From the NCBI GenBank assembly GCA_029856155.1, contig JAHQWL010000100.1, positions 1-13,875 on the forward strand: a stretch of DNA of 13,875 nt. Reading direction: 5' to 3'. Below the pieces are notes generated by a model that made no database searches, was not told the origin of the DNA, and saw nothing but the letters and a program-made list of their open reading frames with translations. Shown here one piece after another: positions 1,271 to 10,541 of this stretch. This stretch comes from Promethearchaeia archaeon. Its GTDB lineage: Archaea > Asgardarchaeota > Lokiarchaeia > Sigyniarchaeales > SOKP01. Both the position numbers and the translations under genes were made by a program. How positions within the stretch are numbered: position 1 is the stretch's first letter; each line of letters opens with the position of its first letter.

Positions 1271-1825
1271 ATGAATAATTCTGAGGAATTCGGATTTAAA
1301 ATAGCGGTAATTGGGGATGGAGGGGTTGGTAAAACCTCTTTAATTAAAAAATTTACGAAGGGGACTTTTGAAAAAGATTATGTAAAGACTATAGGCGCCC
1401 AATTTTCAAGATTTGATAAAAAGATTGGAGAGGATTTAATTAATCTAATATTTTGGGATATTGCAGGGCAAGATGATTTTAATTTTCTACACCCTTTATT
1501 TTATAAAGAAAGTCGAGCTGGGATTATAGTATATAGCCTTGAAGAAAATGATTTAGGGACAGATAGTTTCGCACATATAAAGAATTGGTATACTGAATTA
1601 AATAAGTATTGTGGCGATATTCCTGTAGTTTTATTTGCCAATAAAGTTGATTTGGTGGAACAAAATAATTTAAATGAACTTGAAATTCAGAATTTGGTCA
1701 AAGAATATAATTTTCTTGGATATTATATAACGTCCGCAAAAACCGGACAGGGAGTAATAGAAGGATTTAATGCAATTATTGAAAAATTATATTATAAATA
1801 CAAAAAGTTGTCTATTCAGGGATAA
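1271..1825 (+). CDS. Ras-superfamily small GTPase, Rab-like
   Basis: G1 GDGGVGKT, G2 KTIG, G3 WDIAGQ, G4 NKVD and G5 SAK are all present. There is no C-terminal Cys prenylation motif, as is usual for Asgard small GTPases. Confidence 0.93.
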   Translation: MNNSEEFGFKIAVIGDGGVGKTSLIKKFTKGTFEKDYVKTIGAQFSRFDKKIGEDLINLIFWDIAGQDDFNFLHPLFYKESRAGIIVYSLEENDLGTDSFAHIKNWYTELNKYCGDIPVVLFANKVDLVEQNNLNELEIQNLVKEYNFLGYYITSAKTGQGVIEGFNAIIEKLYYKYKKLSIQG

Positions 1826-1873
1826 TAATTGAATGATCTTCTTTTATTCAATCTATCAGAAATCTCACTTTTA
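1812..1873 (-). repeat. R1: degenerate copy of the lrp 3' end
   Basis: Minus strand reads ...D*IKEDHSIIIPE-TAG versus lrp ...DRIKEDHSIIIPE-TAA. It has a CGA>TGA nonsense change and a 1-nt indel upstream. The 23-bp core at 1825-1847 is identical to 9785-9807. Confidence 0.9.
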
Positions 1874-2798: not shown

Positions 2799-2927
2799 GC
2801 ATTCTGGAATAATAATTGAATGATCTTCTTTTATCCGATCTAAAACAATCTCTGTTTTGACTTCCTCAACTCCTGGAAGGTTACGGAGTGTTTCAATAAA
2901 ACCCATCAAATTTTGATTATGTAGACA
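2799..2927 (-). repeat. R2: copy of the last ~42 codons of lrp, stop codon lost
   Basis: Encodes MGFIETLRNLPGVEEVKTEIVLDRIKEDHSIIIPE versus lrp MGLIETLRNLPGVEEVKTEIVLDRIKEDHSIIIPE. Over 35 codons (2802-2906) I count 10 synonymous and 1 non-synonymous difference. The stop position reads TGC. Confidence 0.95.
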
Positions 2928-2971
2928 TGATTCTTCTATTAAAAATATCTAAAAAAACAGAAAAAATACTT

Positions 2972-3026
2972 TTAAAATATATTCTGGAGATGCTATTTTT
3001 TCATAAAGATATAAACACCAGCAATT
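2972..3026 (-). pseudogene. Remnant of the 3' end of a beta-helix surface-protein gene, homologous to 5964-6019
   Basis: ttaaaatatattctggagatgcta-ttttttcataaagatataaacaccagcaatt aligns with ttaaaatttattctggcgttgctcgttttttcataaagatatacacaccagctatt. It translates to IAGVYIFMKK/ASPE versus IAGVYIFMKKRATPE*. Confidence 0.8.
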
Positions 3027-3082
3027 GTATCAACTCAACTAAAATGTTCAAAAAGTGGAGTTTTTTCTTTCTGTTAAATATT

Positions 3083-3505
3083 TTAATCTGAAAACATGCT
3101 TTCAGGAAGTATCCAAACAGGCGGATCTCTTTTAAGCCCTTTTTCTTTAAGTTTTTGTAGCTTATTTCTATAATTATTATAAAAATCGGTTCCAAAGATA
3201 CAAATACCATGATCAATGGCATCTAAAATAGATACGACACCTTCATGAAACATTTTATTAAATTCATCTATTCTATAACAAAACGCATCCAAACCTAAAG
3301 ATAATTTATAATTCTCATAAATAATGGTGGGTCTATGAATAAAAGGTTCTTTAAAGTCTCCAATAAATATTATGTCTAGGTCGCTATTTTCCATAAAATC
3401 ACCTCTTGCTCTCGATCCGAACAGGATTACACATTCTAATGATACTTTTTTATTGATATTTTCCGAAAATTTAATTATATAATCCTTCAAATCAGCCTCT
3501 AGCAT
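3083..3505 (-). CDS. Minimal nucleotidyltransferase (MNT), antitoxin of a HEPN/MNT pair
   Basis: LFGSRARGD...SDLDIIFI is the Pol-beta-type GS...DxD motif. The start is reassigned to ATG 3505, just after the HEPN stop. Confidence 0.9.
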   Translation of the reverse strand: MLEADLKDYIIKFSENINKKVSLECVILFGSRARGDFMENSDLDIIFIGDFKEPFIHRPTIIYENYKLSLGLDAFCYRIDEFNKMFHEGVVSILDAIDHGICIFGTDFYNNYRNKLQKLKEKGLKRDPPVWILPESMFSD

Positions 3506-3509
3506 ATCA

Positions 3510-3908
3510 TCAGTCTCCTTTAATTTCCTTATTAACAAAATTAATTATATCTTTCGCTTGATTTATTGCAATTTCTGCTTCTTGTTTATTATAAGCTTTA
3601 TGTGGAGCAATATTTGGAAGTGCATCGGGATAACGTGTTGTAATATAGTGTTTATCAAGGCTTAGTGCTAATCTTTCAATATTATCAAAATTTTCATTTT
3701 TAATATTCTTATATTTTTCTAAAAGCGAGTGAATAGAATGCCCCCACCCATTAATTTTATTATGATATAACAAGGCTTTCACTGCTTTTTCTGCAGCTTG
3801 CTGACAATGAAAAACTACAGTATTGAATCTATCATTCTCAAACAAAATATTTGCGTTTCCAAGATCCCAGTTTGCTTCCTCTAACCAATTGGTAGTTCGT
3901 TCATTCAT
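3510..3908 (-). CDS. HEPN domain protein
   Basis: WLEEAxxDL, FHCQQAAEKAVKALL, GHSIxxLL and LDKHYITTRYPD are signature motifs of the archaeal HEPN family paired with MNT. Confidence 0.92.
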   Translation of the reverse strand: MNERTTNWLEEANWDLGNANILFENDRFNTVVFHCQQAAEKAVKALLYHNKINGWGHSIHSLLEKYKNIKNENFDNIERLALSLDKHYITTRYPDALPNIAPHKAYNKQEAEIAINQAKDIINFVNKEIKGD

Positions 3909-4226
3909 GAAAGTGATCTATTTTTTTAAAAGTTGCTCTATATTTAATATATCCTTTCAATTTTAAATAACTAGGTAGTAATAGAACTTTTTTCTACCTA
4001 TTTTCATTAATTTTCTTAGATTTGATTCCCATATAATTTGATATAATTTTGAAAATAATAGGATAGTACGATACTTTTCAATAAGACTTATTGAAACTTC
4101 TATTCAATTATTTTTTTAGAAAACATTAAACAGTTTATAAATTATAGTTAAATCTTTTTAGAAAAAATTTATTGATTCACTTAAATACTATTATTTTCTT
4201 TATTATATTGGAAAAGGGGGTGTATT

Positions 4227-5048
4227 ATGTTGAATGAAACCAGATTAAATAAAGTCAATGAGGAAAATTTGGAAAGAATTTGGCAAATTCGTGATTATAT
4301 CCAGGAACTCGAGGATGTAAAGGACGGATTTATTGGATTTATAAGCTCTGATGATGATATAGATGATTCCACGAGGAATATTTGGATATCAGATGCTAAA
4401 GAATTCTATTTTAGCACAGTGACAGCTTGGGAAATGCTCCACTTTACTGTGAGGGGGATGAAGAACCATTTGGATGATTCTAAAGGCTTTTTATATCGTG
4501 CTAAAAGTCGATTAGCCCAGTCTATTAGTGAATTAAAAATATTTGAGCAAGAAAAAAACCTTTCTAAATTAATAACAAAAGCAAAATTAGCATTTGAAAA
4601 ATGTTGGAATGCCTTCCAACGCGAATATAAGTTAATCGAACCAGATATAAGTATAATGAAGCCTGTTCCAAGGGTAATAAAAAAATCTAATCATGAATAT
4701 CAACTTCCATGTTCTATTTGTGGTGAAATAGCTGTCGATTATAGAATAGGTGTTGGACAATTTGATAAAGAAGAAAAACTCCTTTATAGAGGGATTATAT
4801 GTGGTACATCGCTTAATAAGGGATTAGCAAATGAATTGTTTGAGATTTTGGAAAACGAGGATATTGCAGGTATTCATGAATTTATGAAGAACTATCATTC
4901 AAATGAAGGATTAGATGCATACTGCCCAAAGTGTGATAAAATCTATTGTTGGAACCATTACAAATTAGAAGAAGAATGGGATGAGGGTTTTTATGATTGT
5001 ACTTATGGAGAATGCCCAGAAGGATATAGGAGAATGATAGATGATTAG
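4227..5048 (+). CDS. Hypothetical protein with helical N-terminal half and Cys-rich, probably Zn-binding, C-terminal half
   Basis: 273-aa ORF preceded by a G-rich Shine-Dalgarno-like sequence (AGGGGGTG). It contains CSIC, YCPKC...YCWNH and CTYGECP motifs. Confidence 0.7.
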   Translation: MLNETRLNKVNEENLERIWQIRDYIQELEDVKDGFIGFISSDDDIDDSTRNIWISDAKEFYFSTVTAWEMLHFTVRGMKNHLDDSKGFLYRAKSRLAQSISELKIFEQEKNLSKLITKAKLAFEKCWNAFQREYKLIEPDISIMKPVPRVIKKSNHEYQLPCSICGEIAVDYRIGVGQFDKEEKLLYRGIICGTSLNKGLANELFEILENEDIAGIHEFMKNYHSNEGLDAYCPKCDKIYCWNHYKLEEEWDEGFYDCTYGECPEGYRRMIDD

Positions 5049-5094
5049 ATTCATAAATATTGATATTTTTTTTATTTTCTTTAGAAAATGAAGT

Positions 5095-5145
5095 TTATTT
5101 GGGAATTATAGTCGAGTAATTTTCCTTTATACCATTTAAAATCAT
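5095..5145 (-). repeat. R3: strongly degenerate copy of the lrp 3' end
   Basis: Ungapped alignment to 9772-9822 translates MILNGIKENYSTIIPK-TAA versus IVLDRIKEDHSIIIPE-TAA. It has the same orientation and the same stop-codon end point as the other copies. Confidence 0.7.
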
Positions 5146-5151
5146 TAATAA

Positions 5152-5442
5152 CTAAGTCTTAAAGTCTGGAATTCGCGAACCATGAATTAGTCTTATTATC
5201 TGAATTTTTTCTACAAAAATCCTATAAATGAGGCAGTAATTTCTTAAGATTAATTCTCTAATATTAGGATCATCAAGCTCAGGTACTTTTCTTCCCATTT
5301 TCGGAAATTTGACTAAATTTTCAACCTTTTCACGTGCCTCTTCATAAAATGAAAGGGCATATTCAAGTGAGTCTTGAGCAATATAATCAATAATCTCATT
5401 CAAATCGTTTTCTGAGATTTGTGACCATTCTATTTCAACCAT
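5152..5442 (-). CDS. RelE/ParE family toxin
   Basis: IEWS...DLNEIIDYIAQDS, FPKMGRKVPE and IRELILRNYCLIYRI...IIRLIHGSR are the classic ParE-toxin pattern. Confidence 0.9.
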   Translation of the reverse strand: MVEIEWSQISENDLNEIIDYIAQDSLEYALSFYEEAREKVENLVKFPKMGRKVPELDDPNIRELILRNYCLIYRIFVEKIQIIRLIHGSRIPDFKT

Positions 5443-5630
5443 TGTTCTAATCTTTTTTTGACAGTCTCCATAATTTGTTCATGAGGGATTACGTTACATT
5501 GCTCAATATCTTTAATTCCCGTGAGAATCTTTTTTTTAACATAAAGATGATACATAATATCATCAATTGTAGCATCTTCTGGCAATTTTTTTATAAGATC
5601 TATAATTTCTTCCTTGAGATTAGAGGTCAT
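5430..5630 (-). CDS. Antitoxin partner of the RelE/ParE toxin
   Basis: 66-aa gene overlapping the toxin start. KEEIIDLIKKLPEDATIDDIMYHLYV...GIKDIEQxNVIPHE resembles small proteins encoded upstream of ParE toxins. Confidence 0.8.
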   Translation of the reverse strand: MTSNLKEEIIDLIKKLPEDATIDDIMYHLYVKKKILTGIKDIEQCNVIPHEQIMETVKKRLEQWLK

Positions 5631-5730
5631 ATTTTCTCACTATTTAAATAATTTTTCTAACTTTTATAATTTCTCATATCGTTTTGCTTATTATTCTAAT
5701 TAAATTTTAAAATTAAAAAAAATATATCTC

Positions 5731-5754
5731 TGGTATAATTTTCTAATTATACCA
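5731..5754. promoter_or_regulatory. Perfect inverted repeat TGGTATAATT-N4-AATTATACCA (role unknown)
   Basis: 10-bp arms with a 4-bp spacer, lying between R4 and the ParE-type TA start. Confidence 0.4.
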
Positions 5755-5791
5755 AATAACGTTTTAAATTTCTCTAAAAGAAAAAACTTTT

Positions 5792-5893
5792 TTATTCAGG
5801 AATTATAATTGATAAATTTCTTTTTACGCGATCTAATACTATTTCTGTTTTAACCTCCTCTACTCCTGGCATGTTGCAGAGTTTCTCAATAAA
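5792..5893 (-). repeat. R4: diverged copy of the last ~33 codons of lrp
   Basis: Ungapped alignment translates FIEKLCNMPGVEEVKTEIVLDRVKRNLSIIIPE-TAA versus LIETLRNLPGVEEVKTEIVLDRIKEDHSIIIPE-TAA. Confidence 0.93.
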
Positions 5894-5970
5894 GTATGTA
5901 AAATTTACTTGATTAAGACATTCTATTACCATTAAAACATATAAGAAAAAAGAAAAATTCTAGTTAAAAT

Positions 5971-7460
5971 TTATTCTGGCGTTGCTCGTTTTTTCATAAA
6001 GATATACACACCAGCTATTACTGCGACTCCTCCGACTACAGAAACAACAATAATAACTATAATAACGCTTGGATCTATTCCACCAGCAGGGATATTTTTA
6101 GTTATCGTTACTTCTTCAAAAGTGAGATTTCCAGCTGTATCATTAGTATAGAACGTAATCGTTATTGATCCTTCAGATAGAGCTACCCAAGCTGCTTGGT
6201 CAATAGTAGCATTCGTAGTAATAGCATAAGTGGTTAAGCCTCCATCAAGAGAATACCAGACAGAATCTAAATTGTAATCTGTAATCGTAACAATGAAAGC
6301 GGGAGCAGTAGCTCCAAACTCAGCTCCAGGAGATGGTGAATCGATTATGATTAATGGTACTACTGTATCCTTTATTATACTTACATCAGCAGTTCCCATA
6401 TTTCCCGGTATATCAGAAGCATAAAAAGATAATGTAATCATACCATCTGATAAAGCATCCCACGCTGATTGTTCAATGTTTCCAGATAATTCTGTAAATG
6501 TGTAATTATGTAAACCACCGTCAAGAGTATACCATATTTCAAATACAGAATTATCTGTCATTGTAACATCATAGCTTGGTGTATTACTTCCAAATACATC
6601 ATCATCGCTAAGCGAATTAATCGTTATCGATGGGGCACCATCTTCAGCTATAGGGAAATAATCAACACTCCCGGCAGAACCACCTATATACGTATACGGC
6701 TCATCCACAATTCCATCTTGGGGAGTTGTATCTGGACCAGTATGATTATCCCAATAATTCCCAATCGTCGTGCTTTTCCACGTATTATCAGTTCCCCCAT
6801 CATAAGCATGCTTTCCATTTTCTAGAAAGAAATTTTTATAGAGTGAATTGTTTCCACAATCGGTATCCTCAATATATATTCCCCTAGTATTATTGTATAC
6901 GACATTCTCAGTAATACTATTATAATCGCAATTAGATTCTAAATATATCCCGTACTCGTTACCGTTTACAGTATTTCCCGAAATGGTGTTATTATCACAC
7001 TGGTGTAAATATATCCCGTAATGGTTACCATTTGCAGTGTTTCCCGAAATCGTGTTATTATTGCAGTTAAAAATTATATATAACCCCAAAGTGTTATTAT
7101 TTGCGGTGTTTCCCGAAATCGTGTTATAATCACAATTACCATCAAAACATAGCCCTTCAGCATCATTATCGTTTGCAATGTTTCCGAAATGGTGTTATAC
7201 TCACAATAAGAAAATAAATATATCCCAAGATCGTTGTGGTTTGCGGTGTTTCCCAAGATGGTGTTATTATCGCAATTATTATGTATATCTATCCCGGTCA
7301 TATCGTTATCATGTGCGGTGTTGTTGTAGATGGTGTTATTATGACAATTACCATAAAAATTTATCCCGTCTCCGGTATTGTTACATGCGGTTTTTCCCGT
7401 AATGATATTATAATCGCAATCGTTATACAAAAACATTATTATGACAGTTGTGCAGTTGAA
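5971..7460 (-). pseudogene. Membrane-anchored surface protein (NosD/PbH1 right-handed beta-helix, Ig-like domains, C-terminal TM); frameshifted and 5'-truncated
   Basis: Repeats of GIYL..CDNNTISGNTAN.N, then GNYWD...DGIVDEPY, two P.I.I.SP...WYSLDGG Ig-like units and a TM segment followed by KKR. ORFs 7074-7436 and 5971-7089 join if CC at 7184-7185 is restored to the CCC seen in sister repeats. No signal peptide or N-terminus is seen, and the 5' limit is approximate. Confidence 0.85.
6960..7350. repeat. Imperfect intragenic tandem repeats, ~66-72 bp period (beta-helix coils)
   Basis: A recurring motif similar to gtgtttcccgaaat(c/g)gtgttat appears near 6970, 7037, 7106, 7178 and 7246, with a weaker copy near 7317. 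Confidence 0.75.
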
Positions 7461-7525
7461 ATCTAAATCTAAATAGTCTAATATTTCTGAAAAAACATAA
7501 ATAGTCAGAAAAACATATATTTTTT

Positions 7526-7786
7526 ATGACAACTCAAGATAAAACAATTGTTGGAAAAAAAGGAGAAATATTACCCAAAAAACCACTAAGGGAAATATCA
7601 GGGATTAATCCCGGAGATGAGGTAATTATTGAGGCACATCAAGGAGAACTAATTATAAAAAAGATTTTTTCTGTCGAAGAAGCATTAGCCATGCCACCTA
7701 TCAGCTCTGGCACTGCCGAAAGTATAGAAGCTGATATTAAAGAGGAGAGAGAATATCAGGAGAAACTTACTAATGAAGAACATTAA
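7526..7786 (+). CDS. AbrB/MazE/SpoVT-family antitoxin
   Basis: VGKKGEIxxxKxLRExxGINPGDEVII...GELIIKK is the swapped-hairpin signature. The gene overlaps the downstream PIN gene. Confidence 0.88.
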   Translation: MTTQDKTIVGKKGEILPKKPLREISGINPGDEVIIEAHQGELIIKKIFSVEEALAMPPISSGTAESIEADIKEEREYQEKLTNEEH

Positions 7787-8279
7787 ATCAATTATGCTGG
7801 ATACAACATATGTATTACCCCTTTTTGGTATTAAAATAAACCTTTCGGAAAACTTTCGAGAAGAGATAAGTCAACTCTGGAAAAACGGAATAAAAGATTA
7901 TGACATATATCTTCCATCAACATGTCTTATAGAAACTGTTTATAAATTACTTTATGAATATAGAAAAAGGGACGATTTGAGCATCTTAGAAAGATATCAT
8001 CTGATTCTCCCAACAATTCTTAATTCATCAATACAAATATATAATCCAGAATTAGACATAAAAGCTAGTGCAATAGCTTCAATCATTAGGAATTCGGGTC
8101 ATTTGGATTATATGGATTGTTGGATCGCGGGATCTGCAGTTGCTTTAAATTCGATCCTTTTAACCGAAGATAAAGAATTAGAAAAAATCCTTAAGATAAT
8201 CCCAGAAACTAAATCACTAAATGTAAGATCATGGAAAAAATTCATTACAAAAATCTTTAATGAGCATAAATTATCATAA
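7773..8279 (+). CDS. vapC: PIN-domain toxin (VapC family)
   Basis: MLDTTY, CLIET, DYMDCWIAGSA and LLTEDKEL carry the PIN catalytic acidic residues. Confidence 0.87.
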   Translation: MKNIKSIMLDTTYVLPLFGIKINLSENFREEISQLWKNGIKDYDIYLPSTCLIETVYKLLYEYRKRDDLSILERYHLILPTILNSSIQIYNPELDIKASAIASIIRNSGHLDYMDCWIAGSAVALNSILLTEDKELEKILKIIPETKSLNVRSWKKFITKIFNEHKLS

Positions 8280-8298
8280 ACTCCCAATATGAGTAAGA

Positions 8299-8617
8299 AT
8301 GAAAAAAGAGACCATAGATGAGCTTGATCGTATAGTGGAATTACTTGCTATAGATAGAATTACAATTGTAAGAAAAATAATTAGTACCGGAATTAAACAA
8401 CAAAAAATACAAGTAACCCTTGATTTATATCAAAAAGGAGATACATTGGAGCGAGCGACAAATTTATCTGATGCTTCGTTATGGGATCTCTTTGAAGAAT
8501 TTAAAAAATTGAGGTATAACATCTAAATTTGATATTGAAAAAGAGAAAGACACATATATTCGTATTTTTAGGAAAGATAATAAGGATTTATTTAAAAAAA
8601 TAAGAGATATTCAATAA
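8299..8617 (+). pseudogene. UPF0175-like HTH putative antitoxin, probably frameshifted near 8510
   Basis: RHH-like N-terminus plus LDLYQKGDTLERATNLSDASLWDLFEEFKK. A shifted frame continues GITSKFDIEKEK...RDIQ to TAA 8617, restoring the family-typical ...KxGI tail. No downstream toxin follows. Confidence 0.55.
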
Positions 8618-8707
8618 ATTTCTTCTATCCATTTGATTTAGTATCAAATTTAATGTGGAGAATAATCCTAAATAAAAAAAGGCTGTATGAAAAGATCTGA
8701 AATTTTA

Positions 8708-8808
8708 TCACTCAGGGATAATAATTGAATGATCTTCTTTTATTCGGTCCAAAACTATTTCAGTCTTAACTTCTTCAACTCTAGAAAAATCTTCTCAATC
8801 TTGTTTTT
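8708..8808 (-). repeat. R5: copy of the lrp 3' end plus a second, more upstream lrp segment
   Basis: 8708-8779 encodes VEEVKTEIVLDRIKEDHSIIIPE-TGA, identical in protein to lrp with 8 synonymous differences in 23 codons. 8789-8808 matches lrp 9962-9981 at 19 of 20 positions. Confidence 0.93.
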
Positions 8809-8929
8809 AATATTCTTTTCCCACCTCATATAAAGAACAGTCGAAATCTATTGAAAAATATTGATGATTCTCTCCTATTTTAAAGTAAAAATTATATAAT
8901 TTAGATATTATATATATTGTAGAGATAAT

Positions 8930-9172
8930 ATGACAGAAATAAAACTTAAAATTCCTGAAGCTTTACACGAAAAAATGAAAAAACACCCAGAGATTAGATG
9001 GGAAACCATTGCCCAATCAGCTTTAGAACGTTATGTCGAAAAAATTGAATTCACTGAAAAGATTGCATCAACTAGCAAATTAACTATTGATGACGTTGAG
9101 GATATAAGTAATGAAATTACTAAAAGAAGTTGGCAAAAACATAAAGAATATCTTGAAAAATTAAAAAAATGA
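8930..9172 (+). CDS. Ribbon-helix-helix antitoxin (archaeal VapB-like)
   Basis: IKLKIPEALHEKMKKHPEIRWETIAQSALERY fits the archaeal RHH 'EIxWS' type. It has an ATGA overlap with the PIN gene. Confidence 0.8.
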   Translation: MTEIKLKIPEALHEKMKKHPEIRWETIAQSALERYVEKIEFTEKIASTSKLTIDDVEDISNEITKRSWQKHKEYLEKLKK

Positions 9173-9630
9173 AGCTTATCATTGATACTAATGTATTAAT
9201 CTCTAGCTTATTGAAAGATTCAACTACTAGACAGCTACTTCTTAATGAGTCATTTGAATTTTATCTACCTGAAATCGTTATAATTGAGCTAAAGAAATAT
9301 CTTATATACATAATTCAAAAATCAGGAATAACTGAAGATGAGATAAAAAATCTTCTAAATGCGCTGCTTGAAAATTTAAAATTAGTGCCTTTTGATGAAT
9401 ATGAAGATCAAATGGATGAGGCAATGGAGATCATGGGTAAAATAGATGAAAAGGATACACAGTTTATAGCTTTAGCATTATCAATTAAAAATGATGGAAT
9501 ATGGTCTAATGATAAACATTTTGATGAGCAAACAAAAATCCAAGTCTATAAAACCATTGATATCATTAATCTCTTGGAGAAAAAGTCGAAAAGTCAGGAT
9601 GATGAAAAGCAAGATAATAAAAAGTTATGA
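9169..9630 (+). CDS. vapC: PIN-domain toxin (VapC family)
   Basis: LIIDTNVLISSLL, VIIEL, DEKDTQFIALAL and IWSNDKHF motifs. Confidence 0.92.
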   Translation: MKLIIDTNVLISSLLKDSTTRQLLLNESFEFYLPEIVIIELKKYLIYIIQKSGITEDEIKNLLNALLENLKLVPFDEYEDQMDEAMEIMGKIDEKDTQFIALALSIKNDGIWSNDKHFDEQTKIQVYKTIDIINLLEKKSKSQDDEKQDNKKL

Positions 9631-9771
9631 TTCTAAAAAATTTCTCTTAATTTAATACTAAAATAATTTATATGGTTTTTAGTTAAGTAAAATGCTTTTT
9701 GTCTTAATTTATGTTAAGTAGAATATTATTCAATCGTTTTTTCTTTTTTAGAAGAACAATAATCTGGAAAA

Positions 9772-10239
9772 TTACTCAGGAATTATAATTGAATGATCTT
9801 CTTTTATTCGGTCTAAGACAATCTCAGTTTTAACTTCCTCAACTCCGGGAAGGTTGCGGAGTGTTTCAATAAGACCCATAGAATCTTGATGGTTTAAACA
9901 TTTTGCCATAATAAATAAAGGATATTCTCCAGTAACTACATAAGCATATTTTATCTTTTCCATCTTCTCAATCTCGTTTTTGACACCCTCTAATGGATTT
10001 GTAGCATTTAATCTTAGAGATGCCATTACCATTTCTCGATATCCTAATAGGCGACAATCAATTAATGCAACATACTTTTTAATCAAATCTTTCTCAAGTC
10101 GTTGAATACGCGCTCTTATAGCAGTAGCACTCTTATTTGTTTGGTGCGCAATTTCTCTAATAGTTAATTTTGCATCATCTTGTAATAACTCAAGAATTTG
10201 TCGATCTATATCATCAAGAGTTCCATTTGTTGATACCAT
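9772..10239 (-). CDS. lrp: Lrp/AsnC family transcriptional regulator (target gene of the cassette array)
   Basis: LDDIDRQILELLQDDAKLTIREIA...RARIQRLE HTH and a C-terminal RAM domain (VTGEYP...LPGVEEVKTEIVL). Confidence 0.95.
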   Translation of the reverse strand: MVSTNGTLDDIDRQILELLQDDAKLTIREIAHQTNKSATAIRARIQRLEKDLIKKYVALIDCRLLGYREMVMASLRLNATNPLEGVKNEIEKMEKIKYAYVVTGEYPLFIMAKCLNHQDSMGLIETLRNLPGVEEVKTEIVLDRIKEDHSIIIPE

Positions 10240-10541
10240 AAAATCAATCCCGTTGGTAATTTTTCAAGGTCTATTATAACTGTTTATAATTTATTAGTTT
10301 CTTACTTTCATTAAAAAGTAATATGTTCTATTTTTAATATAGTAGTTTTGATTTATAATTTTTTTTACTACAAACTTATGATCATATAGTTTTATTTGTT
10401 AATAAATGATATGATTATAGAAAAAAAAACTATTATTTAAATAGTATATTATATTTTTGATCTATAATGAATATGATTCATAATCTAAAATGATATAATA
10501 ACAAAAAAAAATAAATAAAAAAACTAAAAAAAGTGAAAAAA
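10240..10541. promoter_or_regulatory. AT-rich divergent promoter region between lrp and tusA, with a candidate operator ATGAAT-N3-ATTCAT at 10467-10481
   Basis: About 300 bp of very AT-rich DNA between divergent starts, with TATA-like tracts and a 15-bp semi-palindrome. Lrp binding is inference only. Confidence 0.45.

Follow-up and report, generated by a model that had tools for sequence, protein, structure and literature searches.

Downstream of a gene for an AsnC/Lrp family regulator (lrp), an archaeon of the Promethearchaeota carries a row of small gene cassettes, each followed by a shortened copy of the end of lrp itself. How are these cassettes joined to the gene, and is there a recombination site at its 3′ end? 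The window analysed here, a stretch of 13,875 nucleotides, is the whole contig C100 of the source genome (G000; 4.1 Mb, 30% G+C, 97% complete). Tyrosine-recombinase core sites consist of inverted arms around a 6-8 bp overlap, and the preliminary description of this DNA took a 23-bp sequence near the end of lrp, below called the 23-mer, for such a core, with the arms ATAATTGA and TCTTTTAT, the crossover in the spacer ATGATCT and a sequence constrained as DNA. The final 36 bases of the lrp ORF were numbered from 0 (window 9807) to 35 (window 9772), and the 23-mer takes up positions 0-22 (the block). From lrp to its distal end, the array contains the following features.

9772-10239, minus strand: intact lrp, AsnC/Lrp family regulator of 155 aa, the anchor gene (Pfam HTH_AsnC-type and AsnC_trans_reg)
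9785-9807, minus strand: 23-mer in lrp, exact match, encoding I145-K-E-D-H-S-I151 and two bases of I152, antisense to the window strand
8782-9771: cassette 1, with a small ORF (8930-9172) and a PIN_2 toxin (9169-9630)
8708-8781, minus strand: tail R5, the last 36 bases and 38 nt upstream, with an exact 23-mer (8721-8743)
5893-8707: cassette 2, with a broken beta-helix/NosD surface-protein gene (5971-7436), an AbrB/MazE and PIN pair (7526-8279) and a 75-aa ORF (8299-8526)
5792-5892, minus strand: tail R4, decayed, with 8/36 mismatches in the last 36 bases (5792-5827); 23-mer position 5805-5827
2929-5791: cassettes 3-4, with HEPN (3510-3908), nucleotidyltransferase (3083-3538), a 273-aa Cys-rich ORF (4227-5048), ParE (5152-5442) and an antitoxin (5430-5630)
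5095-5132, minus strand: tail R3, minimal and decayed, with 9/36 mismatches in the last 36 bases (5095-5130)
2799-2928, minus strand: tail R2, the last 36 bases and 94 nt upstream, with an exact 23-mer (2812-2834) and TGC in place of the stop codon
1856-2798: cassette 5, with a small antitoxin-like ORF and a 167-aa PIN-like ORF (1953-2456)
1812-1855, minus strand: tail R1, the distal end of the array, with an exact 23-mer (1825-1847) and a decayed 5′ part
1271-1825, plus strand: Ras-like small GTPase (Pfam Ras, E = 2e-39), the original convergent neighbour of lrp according to synteny with arrays of other genomes

The five further copies of the lrp 3′ end (R5, R4, R3, R2 and R1) all lie downstream of lrp and in its orientation. 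Over tail R5 and the 415 bp downstream of it, the identity to locus L069, from another species, is 94-97%, while the 5′ part of R5 reaches ~82%. Tail R3, an orthologue of a better preserved tail in locus L062, divides cassette 3 from cassette 4, and the pieces of these two cassettes are found separately in other genomes. The 5′ part of R1 carries a stop codon and a frameshift. R1 shares its final 14 nt with the end of the convergent GTPase gene, and the stop codon of this gene faces positions 22-24 of R1. The flank of R1 directly follows intact lrp in the unoccupied site of locus L077. In the unoccupied sites (window 1812-1825; L077:1312-1360), an overlap of ~14 nt between lrp and the convergent GTPase gene can be noted.

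Additional observations concern the content of the array. The beta-helix/NosD gene of cassette 2 (5971-7436) extends over two frames and its start is missing; among the array cargo of other genomes, NosD/beta-helix is the commonest (8 of 83 ORFs). The arginine codon CGA immediately 5′ of the block has changed to the in-frame stop codon TGA in R1 (1848-1853), and the same change was found at the same place in unrelated arrays (L045:4291-4296 and 9019-9024; L053:9627-9632).

Cassette arrays with a 5′-truncated lrp tail after each cassette occur genus-wide in Promethearchaeota (Lokiarchaeota-type Asgard archaea). Orthologues of lrp with 65-97% identity are present in 33 of the 54 genomes of the genus (E <= 1e-30), and a protein search revealed many genomes and metagenome contigs in which lrp is followed by 1-5 partial copies. 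The set of 146 distinct lrp ends and tails used below comes from Promethearchaeota genomes and metagenomes and includes 78 metagenome loci; tails were located via a 36-base anchor with <=9 mismatches, a search that misses scars of smaller size or stronger decay. The genomes used are MAGs, whose contigs may mix strains. Residue 154/155 is the end point of all partial copies, whereas their 5′ boundaries are spread from codon 26 to codon 144 (residues 20 to 137 in the protein search) without a common motif, each cassette family having its own tail 5′ boundary. The idea that the extreme 3′ end of lrp is the joining place, put forward in the preliminary description, is supported in the source genome and across the genus. 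The tails are ~36-390 nt in length and the array units are 0.7-3 kb; minimal tails (R3, L048 and L052) keep approximately the last 28-36 nt.

The cassettes are mobile. An identical downstream flank is found after intact lrp in one genome and after a tail in another, and the cassettes of the window, like the others carrying genes in both orientations, recur elsewhere in other orders. Cassette 5 is 85-93% identical to a cassette at another array position in L032 and L045. Cassette 1 from position 8850 on, together with lrp, is 95% identical to a long tail and its cassette in a sister species (L032). Since this long tail and the cassette behind it are orthologous to lrp and cassette 1 of the window, a formerly functional lrp became a tail in the sister species.

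Some arrays contain unusual elements. Locus L044 (G028:C128:8300-28000) is a 15.8-kb array with extra pairs of GTPase and TPR-longin genes between lrp and the terminal tail. Several tails of 100-130 codons span the whole ligand-binding (RAM) domain (L032:376-767, L073:11464-11855, L051:1823-2161 and L060:2455-2754); several of them lack an internal stop and might therefore yield separate RAM-domain proteins. Directly behind the lrp stop codon, a ‘trailer’ of ~52 nt (TAAAAACC, a T-run, AAGAGAAA and following bases) is nearly identical in several species, with different cassette bodies behind it (L073:10469-10520, L033:1823-1875, L076:633-683, L123:513-563 and L062:4253-4310); a related form is located in the window at ~5760-5791. 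The trailer could act as a terminator or represent a small independent module. The T-run/AAGAGAAA motif was considered as a universal right arm and rejected, being present in only ~13 of 143 copies and belonging to the trailer module.

One explanation of the tails would be that they are local duplications of the lrp end which decay in place, the 23-mer being the slowest part to decay, with no mobility of the cassettes. Decay itself can be seen: the preliminary description had called the site decayed in R4 (5805-5827) and R3 (5108-5130), and these tails indeed have 8 and 9 mismatches to the 36-base consensus, while the stop codon and frameshift in R1 point the same way. However, the differences of tails from functional lrp are mostly synonymous (913 synonymous to 483 nonsynonymous; 699:127 between functional genes), and the tails thus derive from functional alleles. 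In the tail parts 5′ of the block, similarity to the lrp of the same genome does not exceed that to foreign copies. For the block alone, a modest within-genome excess was found (0.75 vs 0.65), partly due to clade-level amino-acid differences. In addition, lrp alleles with 12% divergence are found next to identical cassette flanks, and cassettes take different array positions in different species. Duplication with decay in place is contradicted by these data and is the least probable of the explanations considered here. Homogenisation of tails by the resident lrp was rejected as well, the within-array similarity of the 5′ parts not being raised. Aberrant bases are ~3x more frequent within ~50 nt of the tail 5′ boundary than further in.

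The identity of the 23-mer copies had been put forward in favour of a recombinase core. The four identical copies reported in the preliminary description were found again as exact plus-strand copies at 1825-1847, 2812-2834, 8721-8743 and 9785-9807 (R1, R2, R5 and lrp), and the synonymous changes said to flank them are seen on both sides of the block. No further copy exists in the window at <=3 mismatches; in the rest of the 4.1-Mb genome, no extra copy was detected at <=4 mismatches, with the exception of one unrelated 4-mismatch match. Four matches occurred in 0 of 200 shuffles of the window. With a fairer null, in which copies are drawn from related lrp ends, the probability of at least four identical copies among six is 3e-4 to 2e-3, so that the identity exceeds independent draws from related copies. 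Identical block pairs within genomes also exceed expectation in a permutation test (8 observed vs 1.5 expected, p = 0.0016), but with this window removed there are 2 pairs vs 0.95 expected (p = 0.24). The fourfold identity is thus real and locally beyond chance; it is a peculiarity of this window and not a rule of the system, because the within-genome excess vanishes once the window is removed.

Held constant as DNA, the block would be expected to show a dip in synonymous diversity at the IKEDHSI codons, as the preliminary description itself had proposed. There is no such dip. In 24 full-length orthologues, the ratio of observed to expected codon identity is 1.31 for codons 145-151 vs 1.35 for the 120 codons before residue 145 that could be scored, and codons 145-151 rank 66 of 125 among the seven-codon windows of lrp for synonymous conservation. 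Bases absent from all functional lrp copies account for 3.1% of the block and 1.4-2.8% of its surroundings in 87 partial tails, and the ratio of synonymous to nonsynonymous differences in the block (101:52) is like that of the 5′ tail part (723:398). All third codon positions of the block vary (ATA/ATT/ATC, AAA/AAG, GAA/GAG, GAT/GAC, CAT/CAC, TCN and ATT/ATA). The exact 23-mer is the commonest version, yet it accounts for 7% of copies outside the window and 12% of the copies encoding the same peptide, and elsewhere, arrays with 3-6 copies mostly contain differing block versions. A block with <=2 mismatches is present in 19 of the 36 other sampled genomes of the same genus, often several times per genome. 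The block is not a recombinase core held constant as DNA.

As for the palindrome, the preliminary description had correctly read arms matching at 6/8 positions around a 7-bp spacer; the significance given to them does not hold, their frequency being at the level of chance. Such arms with such a spacer occur at ~1% (1.0%) of window positions per register and at 1.8% within lrp. Another weak dyad, ATTCA N11 TGAAT, is located at positions 13-17 and 29-33 and centred on position 23. Covariation of its paired positions was not found (paired fraction 0.72 vs 0.72 expected, and 0.61 vs 0.59).

The place of joining was mapped using copies from different loci with near-identical downstream flanks, the similarity being traced back into lrp; the sequence pairs are non-independent events. 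In 29 pairs sharing a flank, the variable positions 26-35 show an excess identity of 0.67-1.0; positions 20 and 23 show one of ~0.1, and those further upstream ~0.2. The converse test (same upstream sequence, different flanks) revealed linkage up to about position 20, which is lost from position 23. With flanks >=90% identical, lrp upstream of about position 24 is at background in 22 of 23 pairs, even when the tails are 60-390 nt long. The rightmost mismatch, with the last two codons excluded, was determined in 22 pairs: it is at position 23 in ten of them, at 26 in four, at 20 in two, at 29 in one, and at 5-15 or absent in five. The sequence 3′ of the exchange zone travels with the downstream cassette, and the sequence 5′ of it does not. 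One more feature can be added to the window.

9781-9787, minus strand: inferred exchange zone (positions 20-26), 10-13 nt ahead of the stop codon's end

The exchange points lie mostly between positions 23 and 26 (window 9781-9784), which is the 3′ edge of the 23-mer and not its centre. The crossover had been placed in ATGATCT (positions 8-14); this spacer, however, travels with the upstream side, the switch occurs 3′ of it at positions 20-26, and the junctions therefore fall outside the proposed overlap. Taken with the absence of a synonymous dip, the chance-level palindrome, the small share of the 23-mer among the copies and the lack of any linked integrase (see below), this contradicts the reading of the 23-mer as a tyrosine-recombinase core, for which the four exact copies amid synonymous variation had spoken; we consider it very improbable. 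By itself, the 23-mer is an ordinary, codon-limited peptide-coding stretch for the IKEDHSI of the Lrp C-terminus, adjoining the exchange zone. The best explanation of its copies is that it is retained in each lrp tail left behind by cassette insertion, and the four identical ones would reflect the commonest codon version in combination with local relatedness or a small conversion patch. The 23-mer was also considered as the minimal block of identity that resolves homologous exchange; this was rejected, the mismatches at positions 20 and 23 putting the exchange 3′ of it.

There is no single phosphodiester used for joining, because cassette families h and i join at positions 16-19, inside the 23-mer, and because in family a the last codon varies beside identical flanks. 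The last lrp codon (E155; positions 30-32, e.g., 9775-9777; L033, L073, L076 and L058) is unusually variable, with GAA, GAG, GAT, GGG and GAC recorded even beside identical flanks. The two families that join at positions 16-19 replace the last codons of an lrp-type gene, and the ORF runs into the cassette DNA, resulting in a different, longer C-terminus (L066:234-269, L071:9112-9147 and 9886-9921, L045:2365-2400 and 6914-6949, L070:10311-10346). In the unoccupied arrangement, the convergent GTPase gene has its stop codon facing positions 22-24 of the lrp end, the place to which most cassette junctions were mapped.

The right-hand junction is informed by one high-identity cassette pair only. 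The body of cassette a is 97% identical between two species (L032 and G005), while the identity is 88% for the left lrp and 86% for the right long tail. The switches of similarity are within ~3 nt of the stop codon on the left and within ~15 nt of the tail 5′ boundary on the right. A single Campbell crossover was rejected as an explanation; it cannot produce both of these sharp edges.

Is there a recombinase that could act on this place? A tyrosine recombinase was not found on any array contig among the 54 genomes of the genus, so the proposed tyrosine-recombinase site has no such enzyme linked to it in any array. A Pfam search found no integrase in the window, and a Pfam census of 83 array ORFs from other loci contained no recombinase among its 25 commonest families. 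The single Phage_integrase match in the source genome is an XerA orthologue (L001:1147-2070), whose best solved relatives are P. abyssi XerA (4a8e, E = 1e-39), XerD and T. acidophilum XerA; resolvase/serine recombinase and Cas1 were not found in this genome. Nearly all 54 genomes of the genus encode one conserved XerA-type protein of 307-329 aa, and many array-bearing genomes have no other. A degenerate lrp-end pattern did not reveal the lrp end in viral contigs.

A site-specific recombinase acting on the lrp end, either the host XerA, in the way IMEX use XerCD, or an unrecognised enzyme, has to be weighed here. The centre of its site would fall ~12 nt ahead of the stop codon's end, the overlap lying roughly within TATTATTCC (positions 20-28) and the 3′ half of the 23-mer serving as the left arm, and the array would be integrase-less and integron-like. 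This is consistent with the sharp, recurrent linkage step between positions 23 and 26-29 in most flank-sharing pairs, where no longer stretch hitch-hikes, with the minimal tails keeping only about the last 28-36 nt, with the XerA-type protein shared by nearly every genome, and with the weak dyad centred on position 23. On the other hand, third codon positions in and around the zone vary freely, the paired positions of the dyad do not covary, and neither the junctions of families h and i nor the variable last codon of family a fit one fixed crossover. The right-hand junction of cassette a is at an arbitrary point inside lrp. The lrp end is also unlike the 11-6-11 dif of P. abyssi (sequence taken from PMC2958812): a scan of the source genome with this dif, which may not be that of the genus, gave best matches with >=8 mismatches, none of them at lrp. 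Of 24 dif-like 11-6-11 candidates in the source genome, the best (C72:110583) was matched in none of the 53 further genomes of the genus. An enzyme of this kind appears possible but doubtful. The more specific claim that the lrp end is a true att site for a host recombinase (XerA being the only candidate seen), cut ~12 nt ahead of the stop codon's end and with arms tolerating synonymous variation, seems unlikely to us; if it is true, Promethearchaeota possess an integron-like, integrase-less cassette system.

Comparable scars at other genes bear on the same question. The source genome was compared with itself for intact genes followed downstream by a copy of their 3′ end that stops at the stop codon, and lrp and five more loci were recovered.

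C5, gene 4207-4884 and tail 6275-6427: YhhN scar (L151), three small ORFs between
C84, gene 9560-10504 and 348-nt tail 6322-6669: TFB scar (L152), ferritin and other genes between
C21:26870-29478: scar of an FrhB-like gene (L150)
C55:121447-133122: scar of a 749-aa gene (L154)
C82:5245-6505: scar of a 105-aa gene (L153)

In each of these five, a diverged 3′-end copy lies 1-9 kb downstream with unrelated genes between. In the YhhN alignment, examined by eye, most differences look like third-position ones, and the homology ends just past the stop codon. The end sequences of the YhhN, TFB and FrhB-like genes are unrelated to the lrp end, which argues against a recombinase that recognises that end.

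We favour, with moderate confidence, homology-guided 3′-end displacement, in which host recombination, either homologous or based on short homology, would do the joining. Incoming circular or linear DNA would bring a cassette beside its own copy of the lrp 3′ end and would pair and recombine with the resident lrp. The exchange would take place just inside the end of the lrp homology, mostly at positions 23-26. As a result, intact lrp would be followed by the new cassette, and a 5′-truncated lrp tail with the older cassettes would be shifted downstream. Homology appears to be at work, because the long tail of L032 is 95% identical to lrp of the window vs 86% to the G005 tail behind the same cassette. 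Several facts fit displacement by homology less well. The exchange zone is sharper than uniformly placed crossovers predict, and this requires exchange over many rounds, a strong bias towards the last block of identity next to the heterology, or a site-specific enzyme. The 12 bases of homology 3′ of the exchange point are short for canonical recombination, and codon bias alone fails to account for the fourfold identity in the window (p ~0.002). Its evidence on the right junction also comes from one high-identity cassette pair, the mapped pairs are non-independent, and MAG contigs may mix strains.

The junction gives base-level coordinates for the swapping of accessory cassettes behind a regulator gene in Lokiarchaeota-type Asgard archaea without a linked integrase. 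It also poses a testable question: is plain short-homology recombination or the host Xer recombinase the route by which toxin-antitoxin pairs and other small modules spread in these archaea?

Literature searches revealed no description of such arrays at lrp or in Asgard archaea, and the lrp array can be compared with several known systems. Like integrative elements targeting the 3′ ends of tRNA or protein genes, it keeps the target gene intact through a new 3′ end from the incoming DNA, leaves partial copies as direct repeats and grows by tandem accretion; unlike them, it has no integrase in or near the arrays, its units are only 0.7-3 kb, and the repeat length is not fixed. IMEX that use the host XerCD at dif (PMC5357621) are likewise integrase-less tandem elements at one site, in hosts whose sole tyrosine recombinase is Xer. 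However, the lrp end has no 11-6-11 dyad with conserved inner bases, its third positions are free, and comparable scars are present at other genes.

Chromosomal integrons and CALINs, including archaeal integrons (PMC9668308), resemble the lrp array in their small, swappable, toxin-antitoxin-rich cassettes, in the repeated joint and in having the newest cassette next to the anchor. In contrast to integrons, no IntI was found, the genes run both ways, and the joint is a coding gene tail of variable length and not a folded attC, the sole dyad around the junction showing no covariation of its paired positions.

The closest correspondence in our favoured reading is with displacement arrays (PMC5361080), in which an intact gene is followed by displaced modules, each behind a 5′-truncated piece of the conserved part of the gene, with a shared 3′ end point. 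For the orphan modules of rhs and cdiA and the effector-immunity arrays of the Vibrio cholerae T6SS, the mechanism proposed is homologous recombination or homology-facilitated illegitimate recombination (PMC5361080, citing Jackson et al. 2009). The anchor there is a toxin gene, whereas here it is a housekeeping-type transcription regulator of an Asgard archaeon; only the last ~4 codons of lrp are swapped with the cassette, and the cargo consists of toxin-antitoxin pairs, surface-protein fragments and regulators, in contrast to the toxin tips and immunity genes of displacement arrays. Both kinds of array contain fragments of foreign alleles and lack a dedicated recombinase, and the traits of displacement arrays are found at lrp: the tails have a common 3′ end, the fragments come from other functional alleles, and scars of the same kind are present at several unrelated genes.
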